Shown here piece after piece: positions 2-21,567 of a stretch of DNA of 64,000 bases (position 1 is the first letter of the stretch; each line of letters opens with the position of its first letter). The DNA comes from Candidatus Latescibacterota bacterium (GTDB lineage Bacteria; Latescibacterota; UBA2968; GCA-2709665): contig OZ244937.1 in NCBI GenBank assembly GCA_965222075.1, positions 2,304,001-2,368,000 on the forward strand, read 5' to 3'. The position numbers and the translations under genes are program-made. Below the pieces are notes generated by a model that was not told the DNA's origin, did no database searches, and was given only the letters and a program-made list of their open reading frames with translations.

Positions 2-3000
2 CCGACCGCTGAGCTCGTCTCGTCGCCGGCCTATCCGGCAGGCACGGCAGGAGTGCCCATCCAGCTCAGGGTTGGCGACAGGGTTGGCGATTCGGAAGGG
101 CTTCACCAGGTGATCTTGTTCGCTGTCACGAGGGATATAGGCATTACTGCGGGGGGATCCGAAATCAAGGCGTGTCATGGGTTGGCGGGTGAGAAAGATG
201 AGCTCGTTGACTTCGAGTATGACGGCACGATTCCATCCTCCTTTGTCTCAAGTCTCTCCGATCCGATTGCGCATCCGATCCACGTGCAGGTGGTCAATTC
301 CGAGGGAGATGCGGGTTGGACGGATTTCGTGCTTTCGGAGATCTCCCCACACCTGGTTGCCACTCTGGAAGGCCATACGAGTGAGGTCAATTCGTTGGCC
401 TTTTCTCCGGATGGGGCCACGCTGGCTTCTTCGGGGTCATGGGACAATGAAATCAAGCTGTGGCACTTGAAGGCCAAGAAACCATTCGTGATCGCCACGC
501 TGAGAGGGCACACGGATGCGGTCAGTTCGGTCTCCTTTTCCTCTCCGGACGGCGCTACTCTCGCCTCCGGGTCCTGGGATCGCACGATCAAGTTGTGGGA
601 CGGGAAGTCCGGTGGACTGATCGCTACTCTGGAGGAGCATGCGGATGGGGTTACGTCCGTGTCGTTTTCTTCTGGCGGAACCACTCTGGCCTCCGGGTCG
701 AGGGATGGCACGATCAAGCTGTGGGACGTGCGGACCCGGGAAGAGATCGGCACACTCGAAGGGCATACGGGTGAGGTCACGTCAGTGTCGTTTTCCCCCG
801 ACGGCGCGCTACTGGCCTCGGCAGGTGGATGGGGTGATCGCACGGTCATATTGTGGGACGTTGAGACTCTGAAACAGATCGGCACCCTGGAGGGGCATAC
901 GGGTGAGGTCACGTCAGTGTCGTTTTCCCCCGACGGCGCGCTACTGGCCTCGGCAGGTGGATGGGGTGATCGCACGGTCATATTGTGGGACGTTGAGACT
1001 CTGAAACAGATCGGCACCCTGGAAGGCCATGCGTCCAGGATCAACTCGCTGTCCCTTTCTGCCCCGGACGGCGCTCTCCTGGCGACCGGCTCAGGGGATG
1101 GCACGGCCATTGTCTGGGATCTTCTGACCCGGGAGAAGATCGCCGCCTTCGGACACACGAAGGAGGTCCTCTCCGTGTCCTTGTCGCCCGGTGACGCCAC
1201 GCTCGCCGGTGGGGGACGGGATGGAGCGATCCTGCTGTGGGACGTGTCGGAGTGGACGGGGGCCCGTGCTTTCGCGCTGGAGATCGTCTATGGCGACGGT
1301 CAGCAGGGCGCCCCCGGAACGGGGCTGGCCCAGCCCCTGGTGGTGGAAGTGCGGGATCAGTACGGCGATCCCCTGTCCGATGCGGCCGTCACCTTCACGG
1401 TCACCGCCGGCGAAGGGAAACTCAGCGGCCGGTTTGCAGTGGAGCACGCCACCACCGATGTCAACGGCCGGGCAGAGCTGCCCCTTACCCTGGGCCTTCA
1501 CCCGGGTCCGAACACCGTGGGTGTCTCCATCGGGGGCCGCGAGTTGGCGACGTTTACCGCACAGGGCGTGGGCACGGCGGTGGCGGAGCTGGAGGGGGAC
1601 TACCGGACCTGGCATCTGCCCAGGGCGGCGACGGTGCGTCTGGGAAAGGGCGCCCTGGGAGAAAGCGACCGGGCGGTGGCCCTCTCGGCGGACGGCCGCT
1701 GTCTGGCCGTGGCCAGCGCCCTCGGCGTGTGGCTGTACGAGGCGGCCACGTCCCGTGCCCTGGCGCTGCTGCCGACTGAGAGTCCGGTCCATTCGGTTGC
1801 GTTCTCCCTCGACGGCACCCTGGCTGCGGGGCTGGACAACGGCCAGGTCGAGCTATGGGAGGTGGAAACCGGGGAGCGCATCGGCACGCTGAGGCATGCG
1901 GATTGGGGCGGGGTCGCGGTGGTTTTTTCTCCGGATGGAACTCGCTTAGCTTCCGGGTCGTCGGATCAGGTCATCAAGGTGTGGGATGTAGAGACCAGGC
2001 GCGAGGTCGGAACCTGGGAGGTGCCACGGGAAGGCAATTTTCTTTGGCCCCTCTCGGTGGCCTTTTCGCCGGATGGGACGAGGCTGGTATCGGGGTTTCA
2101 AGATGGCACGGTCAGGCTGTGGGACATAGCGACACAGACGGAGTTGGCCACGCTGGAAGGACATACGGATCGGGTCACATCGGTGTCGTTTTCGCCCGAT
2201 GGCGGCTTGCTGGCTTCGGCCGGGGGGTGGAGTGATCCCACGGTCCGGCTGTGGGACGCGGCCACACAGGCGCAGGTCGCCATGTTGAGAGGACACAGGA
2301 GCGAGGTCCGTTCGGTGTCGTTTTCCTCCCCTGACGGCGCCACCCTGGCTTCCGGGGCATGGGACCGCACCGTCCGGCTGTGGGACGTGGCGACGAGAGA
2401 GTTGATCAACACTCTGGAAGAGCACACGGGTCCGGTCCATTCGGTGACGTTTTCCCGCGATGGCGCCACCCTGGCTTCCGGGGCCGCGGACGGCAGGGTG
2501 CTGCTGCGGGATCTGGAGTCCAGGAATGCCGCCGGGCTCGCCGGGCATGAGTCCTCTTCATCCATGGTGTTTTCCCGCGATGGCGCGCTCGTGGCTTCGG
2601 GTTCTCAGGACGGCACCATCAAGCTGTGGGACGCGGTGACGCAAACCCAGATCGCCGTTCTGGAAGGGCATACAGCTCGGGTCGCTGCAGTGTCGTTTTC
2701 ACCCGATGGCGCGCTCCTGGCTTCAGCCGGGGGCTGGGATGATCCGGTCAAGCTGTGGGATGTGGCGACACGAACACAGATCGGCACTCTGGGGCACTCA
2801 CGGCGGATCAATGCCATGTCCTTCTCCTCTCCAGACGGCGCCCGGCTGGCTAAAGGATCGTCGGACGGCACGATCACGCTGTGGGACGTGGCCACACGAG
2901 AACAGATCGGCACCCTGGAAGGACACATGGATGGCGTCCGTTCGATGTCCTTTTCTCCCGATGGTGCCACCCTGGCCTCGGGAGGGGGCCATGAAGACAA

Positions 3001-5758
3001 GACGGTCAAACTGTGGGACGTGGGGACCCGAGAGCTGATCGGCACCCTGGAAGGGCATGAGTATGAGGTCAATACAGTGGCCTTTTCGCCCAGGGGCAGG
3101 ATGCTCGTTTCCGGGTCGCACCGCACGGTCAAGCTGTGGGACGTGGAGACCCGAGAGCCGATCGGCGCCCTGGAAGGTGTGGGGGCCAACGCCGTTTCGT
3201 TCTCGCGCGATGGGACGATGCTTGTTTCCGGGTCGCACCGCACGGTCAGGCTGTGGGATGTGGCAACAAGACGGATGATCACCACCCTGGAAGGACATGC
3301 TCGTTCGGTGAATCATGTGGCGTTGTCTCGCGATCAAATGAACCTGATTACTGGATCGGACGACGGCACGATTCTGCTGTGGGACATCTCGGAGTGGACG
3401 CGGCCCCGTCCCTCCGCGCTGGCGGTCATCTCCGGCGACGGGCAGCAGGGCGAGCCCGGTGCGGCGTTGACCCATCCCCTGATCGTGGAAGTGCGGGACC
3501 AGTACGGCGATCTCCTGCCGGAGGCCACCGTCGCCTTCACGGTTACTGCCGGGGAGGGCCAGCTCAGCGACCGTTTCACGGTGGAGCACATCACCACCGA
3601 TGCCAACGGCCGGGCGGAGCTGATCCTTACCCTGGGTCCTCAACCGGGGCAGAATATCGTGGGCGTGACCCTCGGGGGGCACGAGCTGGCGACGTTTACC
3701 GCACAGGGCGTGGGCACGGCGGTGGCGGAGCTGGAAGGGGACTACCGGACCTGGCATCTGCCCACGGCAGCGACGGTGCGTCTGGGAAAGGGCGCCCTGG
3801 GAGAAAGCGACCGGACGGTAGCTCTCTCGGCCGACGGCCGATGTCTGGCCGTGGCCAGCGGCATCGGCGTGTGGCTGTACGAGGCGTCCACGTCTCGTGC
3901 TCTGGCGCTGCTGCCGACGGAGAGTCCGGTCCATTCGGTGGCGTTCTCCCTCGACGGCACCCTGGCTGCCGGACTGGACAATGGCCAGGTCGAGCTGTGG
4001 GAGGTGGAAACAGGGGAGCGGACCGGCACGTTGAGGCATGCAAATTGGGGCGGGGTCGCGGTGGTTTTTTCTCCGGATGGGACGAAGCTGGCTTCCGGGT
4101 CATTGGAACAGGTCATCAAGCTTTGGGATATCGAGACCAGGCGTGAGGTGGGCACGTGGGAGGTGCCGCGGGACAGCGATTTTTACTGGGACATCTCGGT
4201 GGCCTTTTCGCCGGATGGGTCGAGGCTGGTATCGGGGTTTCAGGATGGCACGGTCCGGCTGTGGGACATAGCGACACAGACGGAGTTGGCCACCCTGGAG
4301 GGGCATACGGATCGGGTCACATCGGTGTCGTTTTCGCCCGATGGCGGCTTGCTGGCTTCGGCCGGGGGGTGGAGTGATCCCACGGTCCGGCTGTGGGACG
4401 CGGCGACCCAAACGGAGGTGGCCACGCTGAGGGGGCATACGGACGAGGTCCGTTCGGTGTCGTTTTCTTCGCCTGACGGCGCCACCCTGGCTTCCGGGGC
4501 ATGGGACCGCACGGTTCGACTGTGGGACGTGGCCACACAAGAGGAGGTGGCCACCCTGGAAGAGCATAGTGGTCCGGTCCATTCCGTGTCGTTCTCGCGA
4601 GATGGCGCGACCCTAATCTCCGGGGCCGCGGACGGCAGGGTGCTGCTGCGGGATGTGGAAACGGGCAATGTCGCAGGGCTCTCCGGTCACGGATCCTTGT
4701 CCTCGATGGCGCTTTCGCCCGATGGGACACTCCTGGCTTCGACAGGGGGCTGGGGAGATGAGACGGTCACTCTATGGGACGCGGCGACTCGGACACGGAT
4801 TGCCACTCTTGAGGGGCATACGAGTAGCGTCACTTCGGTGTCTTTTTCTTCGGATGGCGCTCTCCTGGCTTCCGGGTCGTGGGATCGCACGGTCAAGCTG
4901 TGGAACGTGGGAACCCGAGAACTGGTCGGGACGCTGGAAGGGCATACGTCTGGAGTCAACGCAGTGGCGTTTACGTCCGATGGCGCCACCCTGGCTTCAG
5001 CCGGGGGTCGGAATGATGCCACCGTGAGACTGTGGGACGTGGGGGCTCACGAGCTGATCGGCACTCTCGAAGGGCATACCAATGAGGTCCGTTCGGTGGC
5101 GTTTACGTCCGATGGCGCCACCCTGGCCTCGGCAGGAGGCGATGAAGACAACACGGTCAAGCTGTGGAACGTAGGAACCCGAGAAGAGATAGGCACCCTC
5201 GAAGGGCATACGGAGGGGGTCAATTCCGTGGCGTTTTCGCACGACGATGCCCTCCTGGCCTCCGGGTCATGGGACGGCACGGTCAAGCTGTGGAACGTGG
5301 CGACCCGAGAAAAGATAGGCACCCTCGAAGGCGCGGGGGGCGATGCGGTGGCGTTTTCGTCGGATGGGGCATTGCTCGTTTCCGGTTCCTGGCACACGGT
5401 CAGCCTATGGGACGTAGAGACATGGGAACAGCTCGCCACCCTGGAGGGGCATTCAGGTTCAGTTCATTCCGTGGCGTTTTTGAGCAACGGCACCGCCCTC
5501 GCGTCCGGCTCATGGGATGGCACGATGCTGCTGTGGGATATCTCGCCGTATACTACCGCCCAATCTCGCAAGCCCGACTTCGACGGCGACGGGACCGTTG
5601 GCTTTGCCGATTTTGTGCAGTTTGCGGCACAGTTCGGGTTAAGCCAGGGCGACGCGGGGTATGATGCGCGGTACGACCTGGATGGGGATGGCACCATCGG
5701 GTTTGGCGACTTTGTGATCTTTGCCAACGCCTTTGGGAAAGGAACTTCGTCGCTCTGA
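2..5758 (+). CDS. WD40-repeat surface protein with two Ig-like (Big-1-like) linker modules and a C-terminal paired EF-hand/dockerin-like domain; 5' truncated by the window edge
   Basis: The frame is open from base 2 (PTAELVSSPAYPAG..., homologous to PTVEITSPTRYQPG in the 9386 paralog). Dozens of GH...WD repeats, two GDGQQG.PG..L..PLVVEVRDQYG modules, and C-terminal DFDGDGTVGFADF...YDLDGDGTIGFGDF. Confidence 0.9.
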   Translation, partial: PTAELVSSPAYPAGTAGVPIQLRVGDRVGDSEGLHQVILFAVTRDIGITAGGSEIKACHGLAGEKDELVDFEYDGTIPSSFVSSLSDPIAHPIHVQVVNSEGDAGWTDFVLSEISPHLVATLEGHTSEVNSLAFSPDGATLASSGSWDNEIKLWHLKAKKPFVIATLRGHTDAVSSVSFSSPDGATLASGSWDRTIKLWDGKSGGLIATLEEHADGVTSVSFSSGGTTLASGSRDGTIKLWDVRTREEIGTLEGHTGEVTSVSFSPDGALLASAGGWGDRTVILWDVETLKQIGTLEGHTGEVTSVSFSPDGALLASAGGWGDRTVILWDVETLKQIGTLEGHASRINSLSLSAPDGALLATGSGDGTAIVWDLLTREKIAAFGHTKEVLSVSLSPGDATLAGGGRDGAILLWDVSEWTGARAFALEIVYGDGQQGAPGTGLAQPLVVEVRDQYGDPLSDAAVTFTVTAGEGKLSGRFAVEHATTDVNGRAELPLTLGLHPGPNTVGVSIGGRELATFTAQGVGTAVAELEGDYRTWHLPRAATVRLGKGALGESDRAVALSADGRCLAVASALGVWLYEAATSRALALLPTESPVHSVAFSLDGTLAAGLDNGQVELWEVETGERIGTLRHADWGGVAVVFSPDGTRLASGSSDQVIKVWDVETRREVGTWEVPREGNFLWPLSVAFSPDGTRLVSGFQDGTVRLWDIATQTELATLEGHTDRVTSVSFSPDGGLLASAGGWSDPTVRLWDAATQAQVAMLRGHRSEVRSVSFSSPDGATLASGAWDRTVRLWDVATRELINTLEEHTGPVHSVTFSRDGATLASGAADGRVLLRDLESRNAAGLAGHESSSSMVFSRDGALVASGSQDGTIKLWDAVTQTQIAVLEGHTARVAAVSFSPDGALLASAGGWDDPVKLWDVATRTQIGTLGHSRRINAMSFSSPDGARLAKGSSDGTITLWDVATREQIGTLEGHMDGVRSMSFSPDGATLASGGGHEDKTVKLWDVGTRELIGTLEGHEYEVNTVAFSPRGRMLVSGSHRTVKLWDVETREPIGALEGVGANAVSFSRDGTMLVSGSHRTVRLWDVATRRMITTLEGHARSVNHVALSRDQMNLITGSDDGTILLWDISEWTRPRPSALAVISGDGQQGEPGAALTHPLIVEVRDQYGDLLPEATVAFTVTAGEGQLSDRFTVEHITTDANGRAELILTLGPQPGQNIVGVTLGGHELATFTAQGVGTAVAELEGDYRTWHLPTAATVRLGKGALGESDRTVALSADGRCLAVASGIGVWLYEASTSRALALLPTESPVHSVAFSLDGTLAAGLDNGQVELWEVETGERTGTLRHANWGGVAVVFSPDGTKLASGSLEQVIKLWDIETRREVGTWEVPRDSDFYWDISVAFSPDGSRLVSGFQDGTVRLWDIATQTELATLEGHTDRVTSVSFSPDGGLLASAGGWSDPTVRLWDAATQTEVATLRGHTDEVRSVSFSSPDGATLASGAWDRTVRLWDVATQEEVATLEEHSGPVHSVSFSRDGATLISGAADGRVLLRDVETGNVAGLSGHGSLSSMALSPDGTLLASTGGWGDETVTLWDAATRTRIATLEGHTSSVTSVSFSSDGALLASGSWDRTVKLWNVGTRELVGTLEGHTSGVNAVAFTSDGATLASAGGRNDATVRLWDVGAHELIGTLEGHTNEVRSVAFTSDGATLASAGGDEDNTVKLWNVGTREEIGTLEGHTEGVNSVAFSHDDALLASGSWDGTVKLWNVATREKIGTLEGAGGDAVAFSSDGALLVSGSWHTVSLWDVETWEQLATLEGHSGSVHSVAFLSNGTALASGSWDGTMLLWDISPYTTAQSRKPDFDGDGTVGFADFVQFAAQFGLSQGDAGYDARYDLDGDGTIGFGDFVIFANAFGKGTSSL
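761..1023 (+). repeat. Exact in-frame tandem duplication of one 44-codon WD40 blade (132-bp period)
   Basis: 761-891 and 893-1023 are identical at the nucleotide level. Confidence 0.9.
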
Positions 5759-15571: not shown

Positions 15572-16804
15572 ATGGTCATTCGGGACCCCGTCCACGGAGA
15601 CCTCCGCTTCACCGATGCGGAACGCCGCGTTATGGACACCTACCAGATGCAGCGCCTGCGGGGCATCCGGCAGACCGGCACGGCCTACCTGGTCTACCCG
15701 GGGTGTGTGCACACCCGATTCGAACACTCGCTGGGGACCTCTGCAATGGCCAGGCGCATCGTCTGCGCCCTCCGGGACAACGGCGTGGCGGTTCGCGCCG
15801 AGCAGGAGGCGGTTGTGGTGCTCGCAGCGCTCGTCCACGACATTTCCCACCTTCCTTTCGGCCATACCTTCGAAGACGAGCGCAAACTCTTCCCCCGGCA
15901 CGATACGGTGGAACGCCTGCGGCACTTCCTGTCTCAGGACGAACTGGCAGATGCTCTGAAGGCCTCGGGATTTCCAGATGAAGTCTTCGCCCTGCTGACC
16001 GACCGTCGGTTCGATCCCCCCTGGATGCGGCAGATCATCTCCAGCACCGTTGACGCCGACCTGCTCGACTACCTCCGCAGAGACGCTTATTTTGCAGGAC
16101 TGCGGCAGGACTACGACGACCGGATCTTCAGCACCTTTACCGTTGCAGAGGGAAACCTGGCCATCAACATGGCCAGGCTGAGCACGCGCACCGAATTGCT
16201 GCACCTGCTCCGCCTCCGCTACTTTTTAACCGAACGGGTCTACTACCACCACGCCAAAGTCGTCTCCGGGGCCATGATCGCCAAGGCCGTGGAACTGGCA
16301 GTGGAAGGAGGACTAACCGAAAAGGATCTCTACGACCTGACGGACGACGCCCTGCTGCGGACCCTCATAGGACGGGGAGAGGCACGCATCGAACGCCTCA
16401 TCAAAGGGGTCATGCACCGCAAGCTGCTCAAACGCGCCTACCTCATCTCCGCAGCCGAAGTGGGCCGCCGGGACCGCGACGAACTGATTGCCACCTACAA
16501 CCGATCGGTGGAGGCCCGGAAGCGGACCGAGCGGGAAATCGCCGACGCAGTCGTCCTCGACCCCGACCAGGTCATCCTCTACTGTCCCGATATCTCCTCG
16601 ATCAAAGAGGCCAGGGTATTTATCGAAACCCGCGACGGACTGCGACGCCTCAACGAACCCCTCGACAGCCCCCCATTCGACGTCAAGGCCGTGGAGGACC
16701 AGTACGAGAGACTCTGGAAACTCTACGTATTCGCACCTGAAGGCTACCGCGAGCGGGTGGGAAAGATCTGCGAAAGGATCTTTGGTGAACCCAACGCACT
16801 CTAG
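15572..16804 (+). CDS. HD-domain phosphohydrolase (dNTP triphosphohydrolase/SAMHD1-like family)
   Basis: IRDPVHG, QRLRGIRQTG, HTRFEHSLG, VHDISHLPFGH, DADLLDYLRRD and VYYHH motifs. Confidence 0.92.
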   Translation: MVIRDPVHGDLRFTDAERRVMDTYQMQRLRGIRQTGTAYLVYPGCVHTRFEHSLGTSAMARRIVCALRDNGVAVRAEQEAVVVLAALVHDISHLPFGHTFEDERKLFPRHDTVERLRHFLSQDELADALKASGFPDEVFALLTDRRFDPPWMRQIISSTVDADLLDYLRRDAYFAGLRQDYDDRIFSTFTVAEGNLAINMARLSTRTELLHLLRLRYFLTERVYYHHAKVVSGAMIAKAVELAVEGGLTEKDLYDLTDDALLRTLIGRGEARIERLIKGVMHRKLLKRAYLISAAEVGRRDRDELIATYNRSVEARKRTEREIADAVVLDPDQVILYCPDISSIKEARVFIETRDGLRRLNEPLDSPPFDVKAVEDQYERLWKLYVFAPEGYRERVGKICERIFGEPNAL

Positions 16805-16977
16805 TGTAAGAGTGCCCCACCCCACGACTCACCACGCTTCAACGCCGCCACCCGCCGGCGCGCCTTCCCGTTCGTCCGTCTCACATCGCCCCTCCAATTG
16901 CTGACCACTCAAAAAAACAAAAGCCCTTCCTTCGCAGAGAAAGAAAGGCCTCTTTCTTCGCCATTTCGAAGTTCCCC

Positions 16978-17532
16978 TCAAACCTCGCCTTCGGCTTCCA
17001 ATCGCTGTCCGGGATGCTTCATCCGCCCAAACAGGGGCAGGCGGGCGCGTCCTTCTTCCTCCAGCTTCTTGTGGCACGACCGGCAGACCGAAATCAGGTT
17101 GCTCAACACATTGGCGTCCGATGCCGAGGCGAACATCCGCACAGGCGTCAGGTGATGCACATCCAGCTGGCGTTTCAACGCTTCCTCCGTAACGCCGCAG
17201 GCCCGGCAGCGGTACCCGTCCCGCTCGCGGGCCCGGGCCGCCTGAGCCGCCCAGTTGCCCCCCCGGTACTCCGGGCGCCCCTCCAGACGCAGCCGAAACG
17301 GTTCATCCGTCTGTTCCTCCTCCCACGCCGCCCGGCACGCGTCGCTGCAAAAATAGAGCCGCATCCCCTTCTCGGCATACCAGCGGGGCAGGGGAAACCG
17401 CACCCCACACGCCTGGCACCGGACCTGCACCTCCTCCTCCCGGCGCGCCGCTTGCTCATCCGCAAAGGCCAGCCGCATCTGCGGCGACACAGCAGCAGGT
17501 CCTTTCTTACATTCGGATCTTCGTTTCGACAT
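16978..17532 (-). CDS. HNH endonuclease with an N-terminal treble-clef (TRASH/YHS-like) zinc finger
   Basis: CQAC...YFCSDAC finger; RDGYRCRACG...DVHH...N..SNLISVCRSCH HNH core. Confidence 0.85.
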   Translation of the reverse strand: MSKRRSECKKGPAAVSPQMRLAFADEQAARREEEVQVRCQACGVRFPLPRWYAEKGMRLYFCSDACRAAWEEEQTDEPFRLRLEGRPEYRGGNWAAQAARARERDGYRCRACGVTEEALKRQLDVHHLTPVRMFASASDANVLSNLISVCRSCHKKLEEEGRARLPLFGRMKHPGQRLEAEGEV

Positions 17533-17540
17533 CGCAGTTT

Positions 17541-17698
17541 AAAATTGCGGCCTAACCACAACCACCGCACTGTCTCCTGGAGAAGGGCGGCACCCGCACC
17601 GAAACTAAGGCGCTGCCCGTCTCGGTCAGGAAAGCAGGCGCGACCCCCTCAAACGGCTTGCTGGTCCACCCTGACCACACGGCTCAGCTTCCCTTCGT
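17541..17698 (-). ncRNA. Structured 5' leader or small RNA upstream of the HNH gene (family not recognised)
   Basis: Nested minus-strand stems GAAGGG/CCCUUC, GCUG/CAGC, CCGU/ACGG, GGUCAGG/CCUGACC and AGCAAGC/GCCUGCU start just after a promoter; a UGCGGU/GCCGCA hairpin followed by AUUUU lies before the ATG. Confidence 0.45.
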
Positions 17699-17704
17699 CT
17701 TTGG

Positions 17705-17734
17705 AATATAGGGAAGATTGTCAGGGGAAGTCAA
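17705..17734 (-). promoter_or_regulatory. Sigma70-type promoter TTGACT-18-TATATT driving the leader and HNH gene
   Basis: The reverse complement of 17705-17734 carries the same hexamers as other promoters in the window. Confidence 0.6.
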
Positions 17735-18035
17735 CGTCAATCGTTATGCGGCCCTTGCCGCATCTGCGGGAACGGCACTTTTTTCTCAACATCTCTTCCA
17801 AAAACCGTTCACAGTATGGATCTCCTCCACCGTCGTTCGACTAACCTGTTGTCTCTTATTCGGGTTCTGAAGATCTCCTTGCGAACAACTTTTTTGAACC
17901 GAATCCGAACGCCTGCCAAACACGTACCAAACGTTGCTCACGCCTTAAAAAAAATTTTCTGATTCAATGCGCTTAAGTTTCAAGACCTTATCGCATTGAC
18001 GATGAAATTTATGCACATTTTCTCAAAATAAGTCC

Positions 18036-18064
18036 TTGACTCCCTCGCCCTCTGCATATATATT
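18036..18064 (+). promoter_or_regulatory. Sigma70-type promoter TTGACT-17-TATATT with no credible downstream protein gene
   Basis: Direct motif match with an AT-rich upstream region; hexamers identical to the 15489 promoter. Confidence 0.65.
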
Positions 18065-18070
18065 CTATCT

Positions 18071-18881
18071 GGTTGTGCCAATATGGTGAACACTTTTTCT
18101 GCGTATGAGTTCAAGTAAATCAAAGGGTTACAGCCGGACGAACTTTTCTCTTTAAATTCAGCCCACCCCCTGAGTTTGAAGAAAAAGTCGCTGGTTTCAA
18201 ACAGGCTTGTATTTTAACGACTTACCATTTCCAAGCCGTTAAGAACGTACCAAAAAGTGTTCACAGTATTGTCTTGCAAAGAACCATATCAGGCGAATAC
18301 TACGTCTAAGCTCAGATGGAAAAGACCTCGATCCATGGGAAGAGAAGCGGGGATCTGGATCGACGTCACCTTAGACTTGTCGGCTCTTGCTTAATCGAAG
18401 ATCTTCTAAAGCACCCGAGGTCACCTGCCCTCACCAGCAGAACAGGTTCACTTTCTCTTCCAGCGGTCGGAACTACCCGGCGGCTATCCCCCTTTTTTTC
18501 AGATTCTCCAGACGTTAACAACCCCAACCAAACGCTTACTCATCTCAGGTGTCTTCATGCGGTTCCCAGAGCGAGGTCTGTACGTCACAACATCGTGTAG
18601 CCCTCTCTCTACACTCACGCGTTTGGTAGATCCCCAAAGAGATACGGGCGGCATGGAGGTCACCGATGGCTTTATTCGGATAGACCTGACCCGGGGGAGG
18701 TAGACACGTTTCTCTGCGGTCAGCCATAGGATTATTGGGGGAGATAATGCTATGACCTGCACCGATATAACAAGAGAACACAGTTTCCCCTCTGATGCAT
18801 TCCAGTTCTAATCCGAATACCCGGCCTTCACGTACCTCCATCCGCCCTCTTTTTCTCCAGCGGCCCTCCGGGCCGCTTTTT
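18071..18881 (+). ncRNA. Candidate large, highly structured non-coding RNA (core about 18304-18881; family not recognised)
   Basis: Bounded by a promoter and a plus-strand terminator, with no convincing ORF. Many 7-14 bp complementary segments, including long-range and pseudoknot pairings; G-U pairs favour the plus strand. Confidence 0.65.
18859..18881 (+). terminator. Intrinsic terminator, plus strand
   Basis: AGCGGCCC-TCC-GGGCCGCT followed by TTTT. Confidence 0.7.
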
Positions 18882-18891
18882 CTATACCCAT

Positions 18892-18917
18892 AAAAAAACC
18901 GGCCACAAAAGCCGGTT
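18892..18917 (-). terminator. Intrinsic terminator of comEC
   Basis: AACCGGC/GCCGGTT stem with an A7 run on the plus strand (U-tract on minus), 20 bp past the comEC stop. Confidence 0.7.
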
Positions 18918-18936
18918 CTCACGCTCAAGCAGAAAA

Positions 18937-21324
18937 TTACCGCCTCGTGAGCCATCCCTCTGCCCGCATCTCTTCTCCGTCGATCACGATCTGAATCGCC
19001 CCCACTTTGTCCGTCCGGAAGATTGTAAGCCCCATCTGCTCGTATCGGCGGATCACCTCGGGGGCAGGATGTCTGAATTTGTTGTCCACACCGCATGAAA
19101 CGGTTACCAGTTGGGGGCGCACAGCCGCTAAGAAGGCCGCTGTTGAGGAGGTGCGCGATCCGTGGTGGGCCGCCTTCAGCACCTCCGCCCGGAGCCGCTC
19201 TTCCCACCTCAGCAAATCCCGGTCGGTCTCGTGTTCGATATCTCCAGTCAAAAGAACCGCCTTCCCCCCAAAGGTAATCCGCAACACCACCGACCCGTTG
19301 TTCAGCCCGTGCGGGGCCTCCCCATCCATTGAGACATAAGCAGGCGTGGGATGGAGCACCAGCGCCCCTGCTCCCCCCAGGCCAACCAGGCTGTCCCCTG
19401 CGGCCACCGCCTGATATGCAATGCCCCGCTCCCGGATCAACGTCCGAATCCGCCGGGCGGTCCACGACCCATAGGTCTGTCCCCCATCCAGGTAGTGCCC
19501 CACCTCGAACCGCTCCAAAAGCGTCACCAGTCCTCCGATGTGGTCGCTGTGTGGATGAGACGCCACGACAATGTCGATTCGTCGGATGCCGCGTTCCCTC
19601 AGAAACGGCACCAGCACCCGTTCCCCCACATCGATCCCCACCGTCCGCAAGCCCCCATCAACCATCATCGTCCGCCCGTTGGGGAACCTCAGGAAAACCC
19701 CATCCCCCTGGCCCACATCCAGCACCACGACCTCTAAGCCGGAAGGCCTCTGAAAAATACCGCTCCAAACCCACAGGTTGGCCAGTCCCAGACAGCAGAA
19801 GACCAGATATCGCCCGGCAGTTTGCCGACGTACCTCCGGCACAATCAACATCAGCAAACAGAAGTAGAGGCCGGTGCCAACCCACGCCGGCTTCGGCACC
19901 TCCACAAAGGCCCAGGTCGGCCTGGACAGGAGGTCTGCCGCACCGATCGCTCCCTTCAAAACAGCCCAGTTCGCCCCGTTAAACAGCGTGGCGATCGGCT
20001 CTAAGAAAACCGAATAACAGAGGACCGAAAGCAACCCCAGCGCAACAGCGGCTCCCATCAGCGGCACAACGATCAGATTGGCCAGAAGTGAAATGGACGC
20101 TAAGTGTCCAAAGTAGGTGGCCACAAACGGCGCCGTCCCCGCCTGCGCCGCCAGAGAGACCGCTAAGGGCGTACAGATCCACTTCCCCCACAGCCCCCTG
20201 TCACTGCCCGGCATCCACGCCCGTATCGGTCTGTAAAAAAGGAGAATCGCCCCGGTCGCTGCAAAAGAGAGCTGAAACCCCACATCGAACAGATCCTGCG
20301 GCCGAACGGCCAGCAGCACCAACCCCGCGGTTCCCAGCGTATTCAACCCCTCTCCCTCCCGGTCCCCCAGCGTCCCCAAAATGGCGATAGACCCCATCGT
20401 CGACGCCCGAATGACCGAAGGCGGCAATCCCGTCACCAGCGCATACATCAACAGCGCCCCCACCGTGGTCAGGCTGGTGCCCCGCCGACCGATCCCCAGA
20501 GTCCGCAAACCAAAGAAAACCGACGCGGCAATCAGGCCCACGTGCAGCCCCGAAACGGCAAGGACGTGGTTTACCCCAGACCGTGTAAACGCCTCTCGAA
20601 CCTCTTCCGGAATGCCCCGTTTCTCCCCCAGCAACACCCCCTTTAAAAGCCCCGCCGGCCCGCCCGAAAGGTTCAGGTCAACCGCCCGACGCACGGCCCG
20701 GCGAACCGGTAACACCACCCCCTTCCAAAACCCGTTCCCTCCCCCCCGCACCACCTCCAGAATCTGCTCTGGATGCCGCACCCTGCCCATCCCGTAAATC
20801 CCCTTTCGTTTCAAATAGTCCCGATAGTCGAACGCTCCGGGGTTCCGGGCCGGGGAGGGCCGCCGAAGCCGAAGCCGCAGGCGTACCCAATCTCCATAAT
20901 CCAGCTTTGGATTCACCTTTCGGAAACGGATCAACGCCTCCCCACAACTCGCAAAAACCGAATCGCCCACAACCACCTGCTCAACCGACAGCAGGACCCT
21001 CAGATCCTCCCGAACCCACTCCGGCTCCCCGGCAACGGCGCCCGCCACCTCGACGTTGCCTTCCCGCCCGGTAAACCGTATGAGGTGATGCACCGGTAAC
21101 CTCTGGGTGACGATCTCGTAACGCATCGTCCCCAGCACGCAAAACAAACATCCCAACAGCTCCCCCATTCGTCGATGCCCCCATCCCCCCCAAATGCCCA
21201 TCACAGCAACCAGAAAAAGCATCCCGGCACCCCCCAGGAGCAGTTCCGCCGGAAGGCTCCACCGGTGCCCGATGAGCACCCCTGTCGCAAAGTACACCGC
21301 CGCTGCCAGAGCCGGACGCCGCAT
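18937..21324 (-). CDS. comEC: DNA internalisation competence protein ComEC/Rec2
   Basis: RNPGAFDY, GVNHVLAVSGLHVG, GFQLSF, LDVGQGD, SHPHSDHIGG and HHGS motifs; ATG 21324 has a GAAGGGGAG Shine-Dalgarno. Confidence 0.95.
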   Translation of the reverse strand: MRRPALAAAVYFATGVLIGHRWSLPAELLLGGAGMLFLVAVMGIWGGWGHRRMGELLGCLFCVLGTMRYEIVTQRLPVHHLIRFTGREGNVEVAGAVAGEPEWVREDLRVLLSVEQVVVGDSVFASCGEALIRFRKVNPKLDYGDWVRLRLRLRRPSPARNPGAFDYRDYLKRKGIYGMGRVRHPEQILEVVRGGGNGFWKGVVLPVRRAVRRAVDLNLSGGPAGLLKGVLLGEKRGIPEEVREAFTRSGVNHVLAVSGLHVGLIAASVFFGLRTLGIGRRGTSLTTVGALLMYALVTGLPPSVIRASTMGSIAILGTLGDREGEGLNTLGTAGLVLLAVRPQDLFDVGFQLSFAATGAILLFYRPIRAWMPGSDRGLWGKWICTPLAVSLAAQAGTAPFVATYFGHLASISLLANLIVVPLMGAAVALGLLSVLCYSVFLEPIATLFNGANWAVLKGAIGAADLLSRPTWAFVEVPKPAWVGTGLYFCLLMLIVPEVRRQTAGRYLVFCCLGLANLWVWSGIFQRPSGLEVVVLDVGQGDGVFLRFPNGRTMMVDGGLRTVGIDVGERVLVPFLRERGIRRIDIVVASHPHSDHIGGLVTLLERFEVGHYLDGGQTYGSWTARRIRTLIRERGIAYQAVAAGDSLVGLGGAGALVLHPTPAYVSMDGEAPHGLNNGSVVLRITFGGKAVLLTGDIEHETDRDLLRWEERLRAEVLKAAHHGSRTSSTAAFLAAVRPQLVTVSCGVDNKFRHPAPEVIRRYEQMGLTIFRTDKVGAIQIVIDGEEMRAEGWLTRR

Positions 21325-21567
21325 GACCACTCCCCTTCTTCCCATCCCCACCCCAGGTGCGAGTTGTGAGCAGCAAGTTCAAGTTGAATGCGGTGGGATG
21401 GGGTGGGGTGGGATGGGATACGCGTAACTCCTCACTCGCTGCAATCCCGTGCAATTTCCATACCGTCCTCCTAAAGCCTCAAAAATGGCCTCCAGATCCT
21501 CTCAGAGGAGAACATTCCGTTCACTTCACAGAACGGATCTTTCACCGTCCACCCTCCCAATATTTGT

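Follow-up and report, generated by a model that had tools for sequence, protein, structure and literature searches.

A stand-alone gene for a rod-shaped non-coding RNA of no described family in Latescibacterota

What is encoded by a stretch of bacterial chromosome that carries a strong promoter and a terminator but no credible open reading frame (ORF) is the question raised by a locus of Candidatus Latescibacterota bacterium. The locus lies in a 64-kb window, which here means the whole stretch of DNA analysed (contig OZ244937.1, positions 2,304,001 to 2,368,000; assembly GCA_965222075.1), and all coordinates below are positions in that window. The genome is 97.6% complete and consists of one contig. 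The unit in question sits in a 1.1-kb gap flanked by an HNH-endonuclease ORF (16978-17532, - strand) and by comEC (18937-21351, - strand), and the G+C content of the gap is 40-53%, as against ~60% in genes. An initial sequence-only reading proposed that the gap encodes a large ornate non-coding RNA of ~810 nt, belonging either to a class of the OLE, ROOL or GOLLD kind or to a new one. Comparison with related genomes shows instead a stand-alone gene for a structured non-coding RNA of no described family, the functional unit of which is a conserved core at 18646-18848. In what follows G000 is the window's own genome, G001 a relative of the same genus (g1) and G004 a member of the sister genus g4; other genera carry g-codes. 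The families of the host's order are f1 and f2, and f3 is a family of the sister order.

The ~810-nt unit is made up of three parts and is not one large ornate RNA:

18079-18271, + strand: a dispersed-repeat insertion in the leader, resembling a miniature inverted-repeat transposable element (MITE) and bounded by 20-nt terminal inverted repeats (18079-18098 and 18252-18271)
18272-18645, + strand: a 5′ domain or leader that varies between lineages and can be aligned only among members of g1 and g4 and, in part, g3
18646-18848, + strand: the conserved core, a rod-like irregular hairpin of ~200 nt, defined by folding, a covariance model and covariation

The first part is a MITE-like element. The 20-nt inverted arms are 90% complementary, and a BLAST search of 18000-18900 against the organism's own genome returned 16 further matches, to sub-stretches of 18071-18272, scattered over the chromosome. 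Full or partial copies of the insert are found, for example, at loci L002-L008, and more copies are present in G001 and G004. At the RNA site itself the repeat is present with deletions in G001 and missing in G004, where the same promoter is followed 36 nt later by the homologue of 18270 onward. The insert resembles MITE-type repeats in its length (~190 nt), its terminal inverted repeats, its many genomic copies and fragments, and its lack of an ORF, and is called MITE-like on account of its ends and copies; it differs in lying inside the leader of a structured RNA gene and being transcribed together with it. Partial matches to the repeat suggest at least two modules, at ~18079-18133 and 18176-18272.

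The second part is conserved only among close relatives. In an alignment of G000, G001 and G004, 6 of 96 pairs predicted by RNAalifold change on both sides, the covariation term is positive (that is, unfavourable), and comparative support was not found for the four pairings located there by hand. Folding energies relative to shuffled sequences point the same way. The whole 811 nt gave z-scores of -5.37 (+ strand) and -2.15 (- strand), with 20 shuffles each, and the core (18646-18848) gave -5.34, with none of 200 shuffles as good. The insert (18071-18265) gave -4.59, again with 0/200 shuffles as good, a signal that is due to its inverted ends. The 5′ domain (18266-18645) gave only -0.78, and 23 of 100 shuffles folded as well. 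Folding better than shuffles, one of the checks put forward at the outset, is therefore seen for the whole unit and for the core but not for the 5′ domain.

The leader also varies in length across the clade. The core is preceded by a TTGAC[TG]-N17/18-TATATATT-type promoter in 50 of the 51 homologous loci, at the following distances:

g6: ~91 nt in most members, ~200-250 nt in some
g2: ~262 nt
g8, g9, g10, g11 and g3: 318-375 nt
g4: 416 nt
g1, with the insert: 553-603 nt

The 5′ parts do not align between these lineage groups. In g6 only ~64 nt precede the core and the RNA would be ~300 nt in all, while in the genus of the present genome the leader is long because the MITE-like element has inserted into it. 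Since it ranges from ~64 to ~575 nt across lineages and tolerates the insert, the leader appears dispensable for the RNA family. What remains of the original proposal is a structured, non-coding unit with its own promoter and no Rfam match; of its length, ~195 nt are a mobile insert, ~375 nt are conserved only in near relatives, and ~200 nt form the core.

The core is predicted to fold into a single long rod of ~60-75 base pairs, with a G/C-rich closing helix and a hairpin at its tip. Single-sequence minimum free energy (MFE) folds of 21 representatives from all lineages are long irregular hairpins (139-202 nt, 44-76 pairs), and a cluster-weighted ensemble average gives the same rod. The elements of the core on which the argument depends are:

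18646-18660, + strand: 5′ strand of the closing helix P1, GGGCGG-C-AUGGAGGU, which pairs with 18834-18847 (ACCUCCAUCCGCCC) and closes the rod
18725-18754, + strand: apical hairpin P4, with an invariant decaloop, YYGGGGGAGA, at 18735-18744
18794-18801, + strand: 3′-side bulge GAUGCAUU, unpaired in the MFE fold, with an invariant UGC at 18796-18798

Reading inward from P1, the rod consists of a variable P2, a helix below a one-sided bulge that carries RAUGCAY, two weaker middle helices, a CGGU/ACCG helix and the apical hairpin. Among the positions that do not vary in at least 50 of the 51 distinct sequences are GGGGGAGAU (18737-18745), UGC 18796-18798, A18734, the pair G18729/C18750, and CC 18842-18843. 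Other lineages show the bulge again in their MFE folds, as an asymmetric loop that has 0-8 nt in its 5′ strand and 8-10 nt in its 3′ strand.

Support for the rod comes from covariation in a structure-blind MAFFT alignment (A6) of 49 sequences, which form ~20 clusters at 85% identity and in which 55 pairs were scored. Of the cells at paired columns, 82.6% can pair, compared with 69.2% in shuffles (0/500 reach the observed value) and 39-50% when the partners are slid; 44 of the 55 pairs change on both sides. The covariation score is 0.473, against 0.255 in shuffles and at most 0.171 with slid partners. A model-fitted alignment of 51 distinct sequences gave similar values (82.8% versus 68.7% paired; covariation 0.486 versus 0.254). 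The strongest helices are the apical hairpin (helix 7; 93% of cells paired, both-side changes in 9 of 12 pairs) and the inner part of P1 (helix 1; 88%, 9 of 11 pairs). The outer part of P1, GGGYGG/CCRCCC, was read by eye because MAFFT shifts f2 by one column there. G-U and U-G cells at paired columns number 406, compared with 96 A-C and C-A cells, an excess that fits the + strand as the RNA. A first structure model of local hairpins, derived with RNAalifold from six f1 sequences, was replaced by the rod because local pairs of the kind found by hand were paired in 52.4% of cells on the 49 sequences, as against 50.3% in shuffles.

All eight pairings that had been picked out by hand could be re-read at their coordinates, and the test of covariation in relatives suggested with them bears out the core, as judged by counts against shuffles. 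Two of these pairings, GGGCGG-C-AUGGAGGU and CAUAG-G-AUUAU, which are the strands of P1 and of the apical hairpin, are well supported by the covariation counts. The UAUUCGGAU pair falls in the P2 region of f1; as UAUUCGGAU/AUCCGAAUA it is present in the MFE fold and fits f1 by eye, but it is not alignable across f2 and is paired in 29.6% of cells. A pseudoknot between the apical loop and the leader was considered and not adopted, because in most of the 50 loci mononucleotide shuffles gave duplexes as good as the best real ones. In g8 and g9 alone, the leaders (L044, L200, L201, L226) contain CCUCCCCC, which is almost perfectly complementary to the apical loop and lies ~80-125 nt ahead of the core (p 0.003-0.06 versus shuffles, uncorrected); this may be a lineage-specific long-range contact.

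Covariance models trace the core through the host's order. The first, built from the 3′ part of six f1 sequences (R1), has a single match in each of 49 of the order's 53 genomes, and a model rebuilt from 49 distinct sequences (R2) finds the core in 51 of the 53, that is, in G000 and 19 of 21 genomes of f1 and in all 31 of f2. R2 found nothing in 79 genomes of the class's other two families or in 102 genomes sampled from elsewhere in the phylum, outside the order. Both misses belong to genus g5 and also lack comEC matches; one has no accA match, and in the other accA is cut at the contig end, so that the region is unassembled and the misses are no evidence of loss. Fifty of the 51 positive genomes have one full-length match. 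In the remaining genome, G048, near-identical copies lie near opposite ends of the 5.94-Mb contig 1 (34472-34688 and 5919672-5919888), which is most simply a circularisation overlap of the assembly rather than a duplication.

Beyond the order, diverged homologues were reached through synteny in both of the f3 genomes examined (L229 in G053, ~2643-3023, - strand; L238 in G055). The order there is accA, a TTGACTTG...CCTATATT promoter, a rod of 162-168 nt (GGGCUCCG...UUGGGGGAGA...CGGAGCC) with a U tract, and convergent comEC. These homologues keep an identical UUGGGGGAGA loop while most of the other sequence differs, the AUGCA bulge is shrunk to YGCA, and with filters off one of the two scores 15.8 bits with R2. 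In family f4 nothing comparable was seen after accA (4 genomes) or after comEC (2 genomes). A pattern scan of a public genome collection gave 8 real R1 matches among the 80 loci listed, 7 of the 8 being assigned to Latescibacterota or Latescibacteria. Exact searches with the 20-nt loop motif gave no match in viral contigs and 8 in metagenome contigs, including 3 strong and 2 moderate R2 matches; the others are one short variant (L243) and two probable chance matches in coding sequence. The short variant (~2141-2160, in reverse-complement coordinates) starts with GGGCGGAGUUGGGAC and shares the apical hairpin, but its 3′ closing strand cannot be recognised; either reduction of the RNA or breakage of a copy may account for it.

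The signals that flank the unit are consistent with an independent gene:

18036-18064, + strand: sigma-70-type promoter TTGACT-17-TATATT, matching 10 of 12 consensus positions and reading TATATATT with the preceding TA
18849-18882, + strand: 3′ end region, in which P1 is immediately followed by a U-rich tract, with a terminator hairpin (18859-18877) and a T run beyond it

The promoter and the plus-strand terminator were both part of the sequence-only reading, and both are present. Transcription would start near 18071. The promoter is invariant across G000, G001 and G004, and four promoter-like sites occur in 17000-19500 compared with a shuffle mean of 1.1. The terminator stem-loop has 8 pairs, 7 of which are G-C, with a T run behind it. 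Terminator-like sites number one in 17000-19500 against a shuffle mean of 3.0, so the pattern alone is not above chance, and the hairpin is kept in G001 and G004. In g2, g3 and f3 a U tract directly follows P1, while g6 has a separate terminator hairpin after the core. A second hairpin, a terminator on the comEC side, was seen by eye between the RNA and comEC.

The unit is non-coding, as had been supposed. Pfam has no match to the longest ORF on the + strand (18316-18600, 94 aa), which is split over three frames in G001 and two frames in G004, and the longest stop-free stretches in the cores are 26-70 codons; with the frames broken in relatives and stop-free stretches this short, the sequence does not code. 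A small ORF ending at the UAA of the apical loop was also considered, on the basis of a 15-codon UUG frame read by eye in g6. This was rejected because in G000 a UAG stands in frame five codons upstream; the UAA/UAG/UGA pattern is also explained by covariation of the stem.

Assembled contigs from RNA libraries cover most of the unit. Four runs of one study, labelled sponge metagenome, each contain 82-85% of the sampled words, and in each of the four a single contig with no differing letter was found when 16500-20500 was examined, extending from 18084 or 18087 to 18825-18846. Each of these contigs runs through the MITE-like insert and the 5′ domain into the core, most of which it covers, in keeping with the metatranscriptome coverage looked for at the outset: some 740-760 nt of the unit are spanned in all four runs. 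The contigs are consistent with a transcript from the upstream promoter, while proving neither transcription, ends, strand nor level. Their 3′ ends (18825-18846) carry unlike letters and so do not map the end of the RNA. Word depth was 67-165 for the RNA contig and 2.4-3.9 for flank contigs, none of which lie on comEC, although such depth is not a measure of level. A weaker internal promoter (18274-18301), which had been offered as the possible start of a ~575-nt RNA, is unnecessary because the contigs already start at 18084-18087.

The closest match to any known RNA was sought with Rfam 15, a library that includes OLE, ROOL, GOLLD, HEARO, raiA and 6S. At gathering score there were no matches over the whole 64-kb window. 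At E-values up to 10, the region 17800-19000 gave four chance-level matches (14.6-18.4 bits, against cut-offs of 50-91) and the core alone gave two (13.8-14 bits). The lack of an Rfam 15 match leaves standing the suggestion that the RNA is of a new class; membership in a class of the OLE, ROOL or GOLLD type, the other option, is contradicted by the same silence and by the restriction of conservation and covariation to ~200 nt. RNase P RNA, tmRNA and SRP RNA were each located elsewhere in the genome. A sponge of the CsrB/Rsm type was rejected because no CsrA is encoded (the Pfam CsrA model finds nothing in G000), and the core is one rod with no series of GGA hairpins.

With regard to kind, the RNA falls among known types even though the family is new. 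ROOL and GOLLD are associated with phages. Source excerpts describe OLE, ROOL and GOLLD as multi-domain folds of 0.6-0.8 kb. Like them, the present RNA is non-coding, lineage-restricted, encoded by a stand-alone gene of unknown biochemical function, and seen in RNA data; it differs in that ~200 nt are conserved as one rod, that it has no Rfam match, and that its exact motif is absent from viral contigs. Clade-specific orphan structured RNAs from comparative genomics, as outlined in the excerpted text of PMC2864571 and PMC8632094, likewise combine clade-limited covariation and conservation with their own promoter and terminator and no known function, the differences here being absence from Rfam 15 and a host that belongs to a candidate phylum. 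Literature searches of titles and abstracts found no paper on non-coding RNAs of Latescibacterota. The shape is unusual: a rod of 6S size with no bubble and with an invariant G-rich loop.

The arrangement of neighbouring genes bears on how such an RNA could act. The principal neighbour is:

18937-21351, - strand: comEC, a convergent neighbour outside the RNA (Pfam Competence, DUF4131, Lactamase_B)

All 30 loci tested have a comEC match downstream, on the opposite strand, and 9 of the 10 loci inspected for accA (Pfam ACCA) have it upstream, on the strand of the RNA. In the present genome accA is not in the window, and a block of HNH and HD genes takes its place upstream of the RNA. The HD-domain gene is at 15572-16804 on the + strand, and a second site with the same promoter hexamers, TTGACT-18-TATATT, lies at 17705-17734 (- strand), upstream of the HNH-endonuclease ORF. 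A cis-regulatory leader or riboswitch would be followed by a gene to regulate; here the gene that comes next, comEC, runs on the opposite strand in all 30 loci and a terminator stands behind the RNA, so that convergence leaves no downstream gene to be regulated in cis.

On these grounds the RNA probably acts in trans, with invariant single-stranded elements displayed on a rigid rod serving to dock a partner. The rod would provide a rigid scaffold; the partner, which the RNA would hold or sequester, would recognise the invariant loop and the UGC bulge. The partner would most likely be a protein; a pyrimidine-rich RNA is less likely. Several observations weigh against this interpretation. The middle helices are only 69-80% paired, and the local CUGACC/GGUCAG hairpin, another of the pairings found by hand, is paired in 75.3% of cells and competes with the rod pairing, so that the fold predicted for the core's centre is tentative. 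The rod was taken from folds of the same sequences in which it was scored, and those sequences are related, so the shuffle and slide controls both flatter it; with only ~20 clusters, the shuffle control in particular overstates significance. The expression evidence consists of assembled contigs of one study, and DNA can occur in RNA libraries. No neighbouring gene hints at a partner, and the flanking synteny with accA and comEC looks ancestral rather than functional, with accA outside the window in this genus.

Among the alternatives to a protein-docking rod, the best supported is that the RNA is a divergent 6S RNA (ssrS), in which the rod would mimic an open promoter and sequester the sigma-70 holoenzyme until freed by synthesis of a short product RNA. 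We consider this unlikely. The two RNAs share a size of ~200 nt, a long irregular hairpin whose 5′ and 3′ ends pair with each other, a single copy, a strong promoter of their own and possibly a removable 5′ leader, and the MFE folds show the general 6S outline, in which a rod of roughly 180-200 nt has a closing stem at one end and a terminal stem-loop at the other. A contig is present in RNA libraries, and 6S precursors undergo processing, so that the variable 5′ leader could be that of a processed precursor. Processing of 6S RNA is, from its excerpted text, the topic of PMC10578484. The Rfam 6S model is silent in this genome and in 132 of 132 genomes of the class, which leaves the 6S slot unfilled, and there is no 6S candidate beside the ygfA homologue: the homologue exists, and ORFs fill its upstream side with no Rfam match there. 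That silence says little, however, since the same model gives a match in only 4-5 of 14 control genomes. Family f4, which lacks the RNA described here, is also without a detectable 6S. The core itself shows no similarity to the Rfam 6S model at E-values up to 10 and is not next to ygfA. 6S RNA is characterised in the available text of PMC8876501 by a large two-sided central bubble flanked by helical arms, which mimics an open promoter, and this defining feature is absent in 17 of the 21 representative MFE folds; only 4 of these predicted folds have an internal loop of at least 5 nt on both sides. The internal loops that do recur in them are one-sided, with 0-3 nt opposite 6-10 nt, and in place of a conserved bubble the core has an invariant apical decaloop and a one-sided UGC bulge. 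To our knowledge, an invariant apical loop is not a feature of 6S RNA. As a separate matter, the 132 genomes of the class have either very divergent 6S RNAs or none.

A slightly poorer prospect is that the RNA is a base-pairing regulator or decoy, whose G-rich loop and a GGAG-type motif on the 5′ strand would pair with a pyrimidine-rich RNA such as the anti-Shine-Dalgarno tail of 16S rRNA, C/U-rich small RNAs or mRNAs. By eye, the loop GGGGGAG is complementary, allowing G-U pairs, to the CUCCUUU at the genome's canonical 16S 3′ end, and most lineages in the alignment have a GGAG-like, purine-rich motif in their 5′ strand. The 5′-strand motif is, however, not strictly conserved (g2 has GGGGGAAG and g10 has AGGAAAAA) and is paired within the rod; no target was found, and in most lineages complementarity between loop and leader is not above shuffles.

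It is also conceivable, and we regard it as decidedly improbable, that the rod is a unit of an RNA-centred homo-oligomer or ribonucleoprotein (RNP) particle with a function new to bacteria and restricted to this one class of an uncultured phylum. In such a particle the five-G loop, and the UGC bulge within a near-palindromic AUGCAU, might contact other copies of the RNA, through loop-loop, G-quartet or palindromic interactions, or a dedicated protein. The invariant loop, the bulge and the rigid rod are the only observations on which this proposal draws.

A further possibility is an effect in cis on comEC, with strong convergent transcription, or read-through beyond the terminators, causing interference or antisense action and the structure serving mainly for stability and termination. 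All 30 loci and both f3 genomes keep the convergence with comEC, also where accA is no longer linked, and P1 followed by a U tract resembles a terminator. Against this, two terminators separate the RNA from comEC here, neither termination nor interference explains the invariant apical loop and bulge, and the conservation of gene order on the accA side as well means that the synteny may be simply ancestral; an effect of this kind is very unlikely.

Least likely of all is one large ornate RNA of 0.6-0.8 kb, of the OLE, ROOL or GOLLD kind or of a new class of that size: the promoter-to-terminator length of ~810 nt, the span of the RNA-library contigs and the z-score of the whole stretch favour it, but it is largely refuted by the relatives, given the lack of an Rfam match, a mobile repeat of ~195 nt that is absent from G004, a 5′ domain that is conserved only to sister genera and has neither folding (z -0.78) nor covariation support, a predicted g6 RNA of only ~300 nt, and the absence of the exact motif from viral contigs.

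We know of no well-studied cultured member of the Latescibacterota. For these bacteria the locus provides a clean and testable RNA family, with a strong conserved promoter, one copy per genome and a covarying rod, in which two invariant single-stranded elements mark where a partner should bind. Tolerance of a MITE-like insertion in the transcribed leader of a structured RNA gene means that promoter-to-terminator length is a poor guide to the size of a functional RNA. If the RNA were truly the clade's equivalent of 6S, it would widen the structural range of RNA polymerase-binding RNAs to include a rod without the classic bubble; if it is not 6S, it would be a new RNP or regulatory RNA of uncultured bacteria, from runs labelled sponge metagenome.

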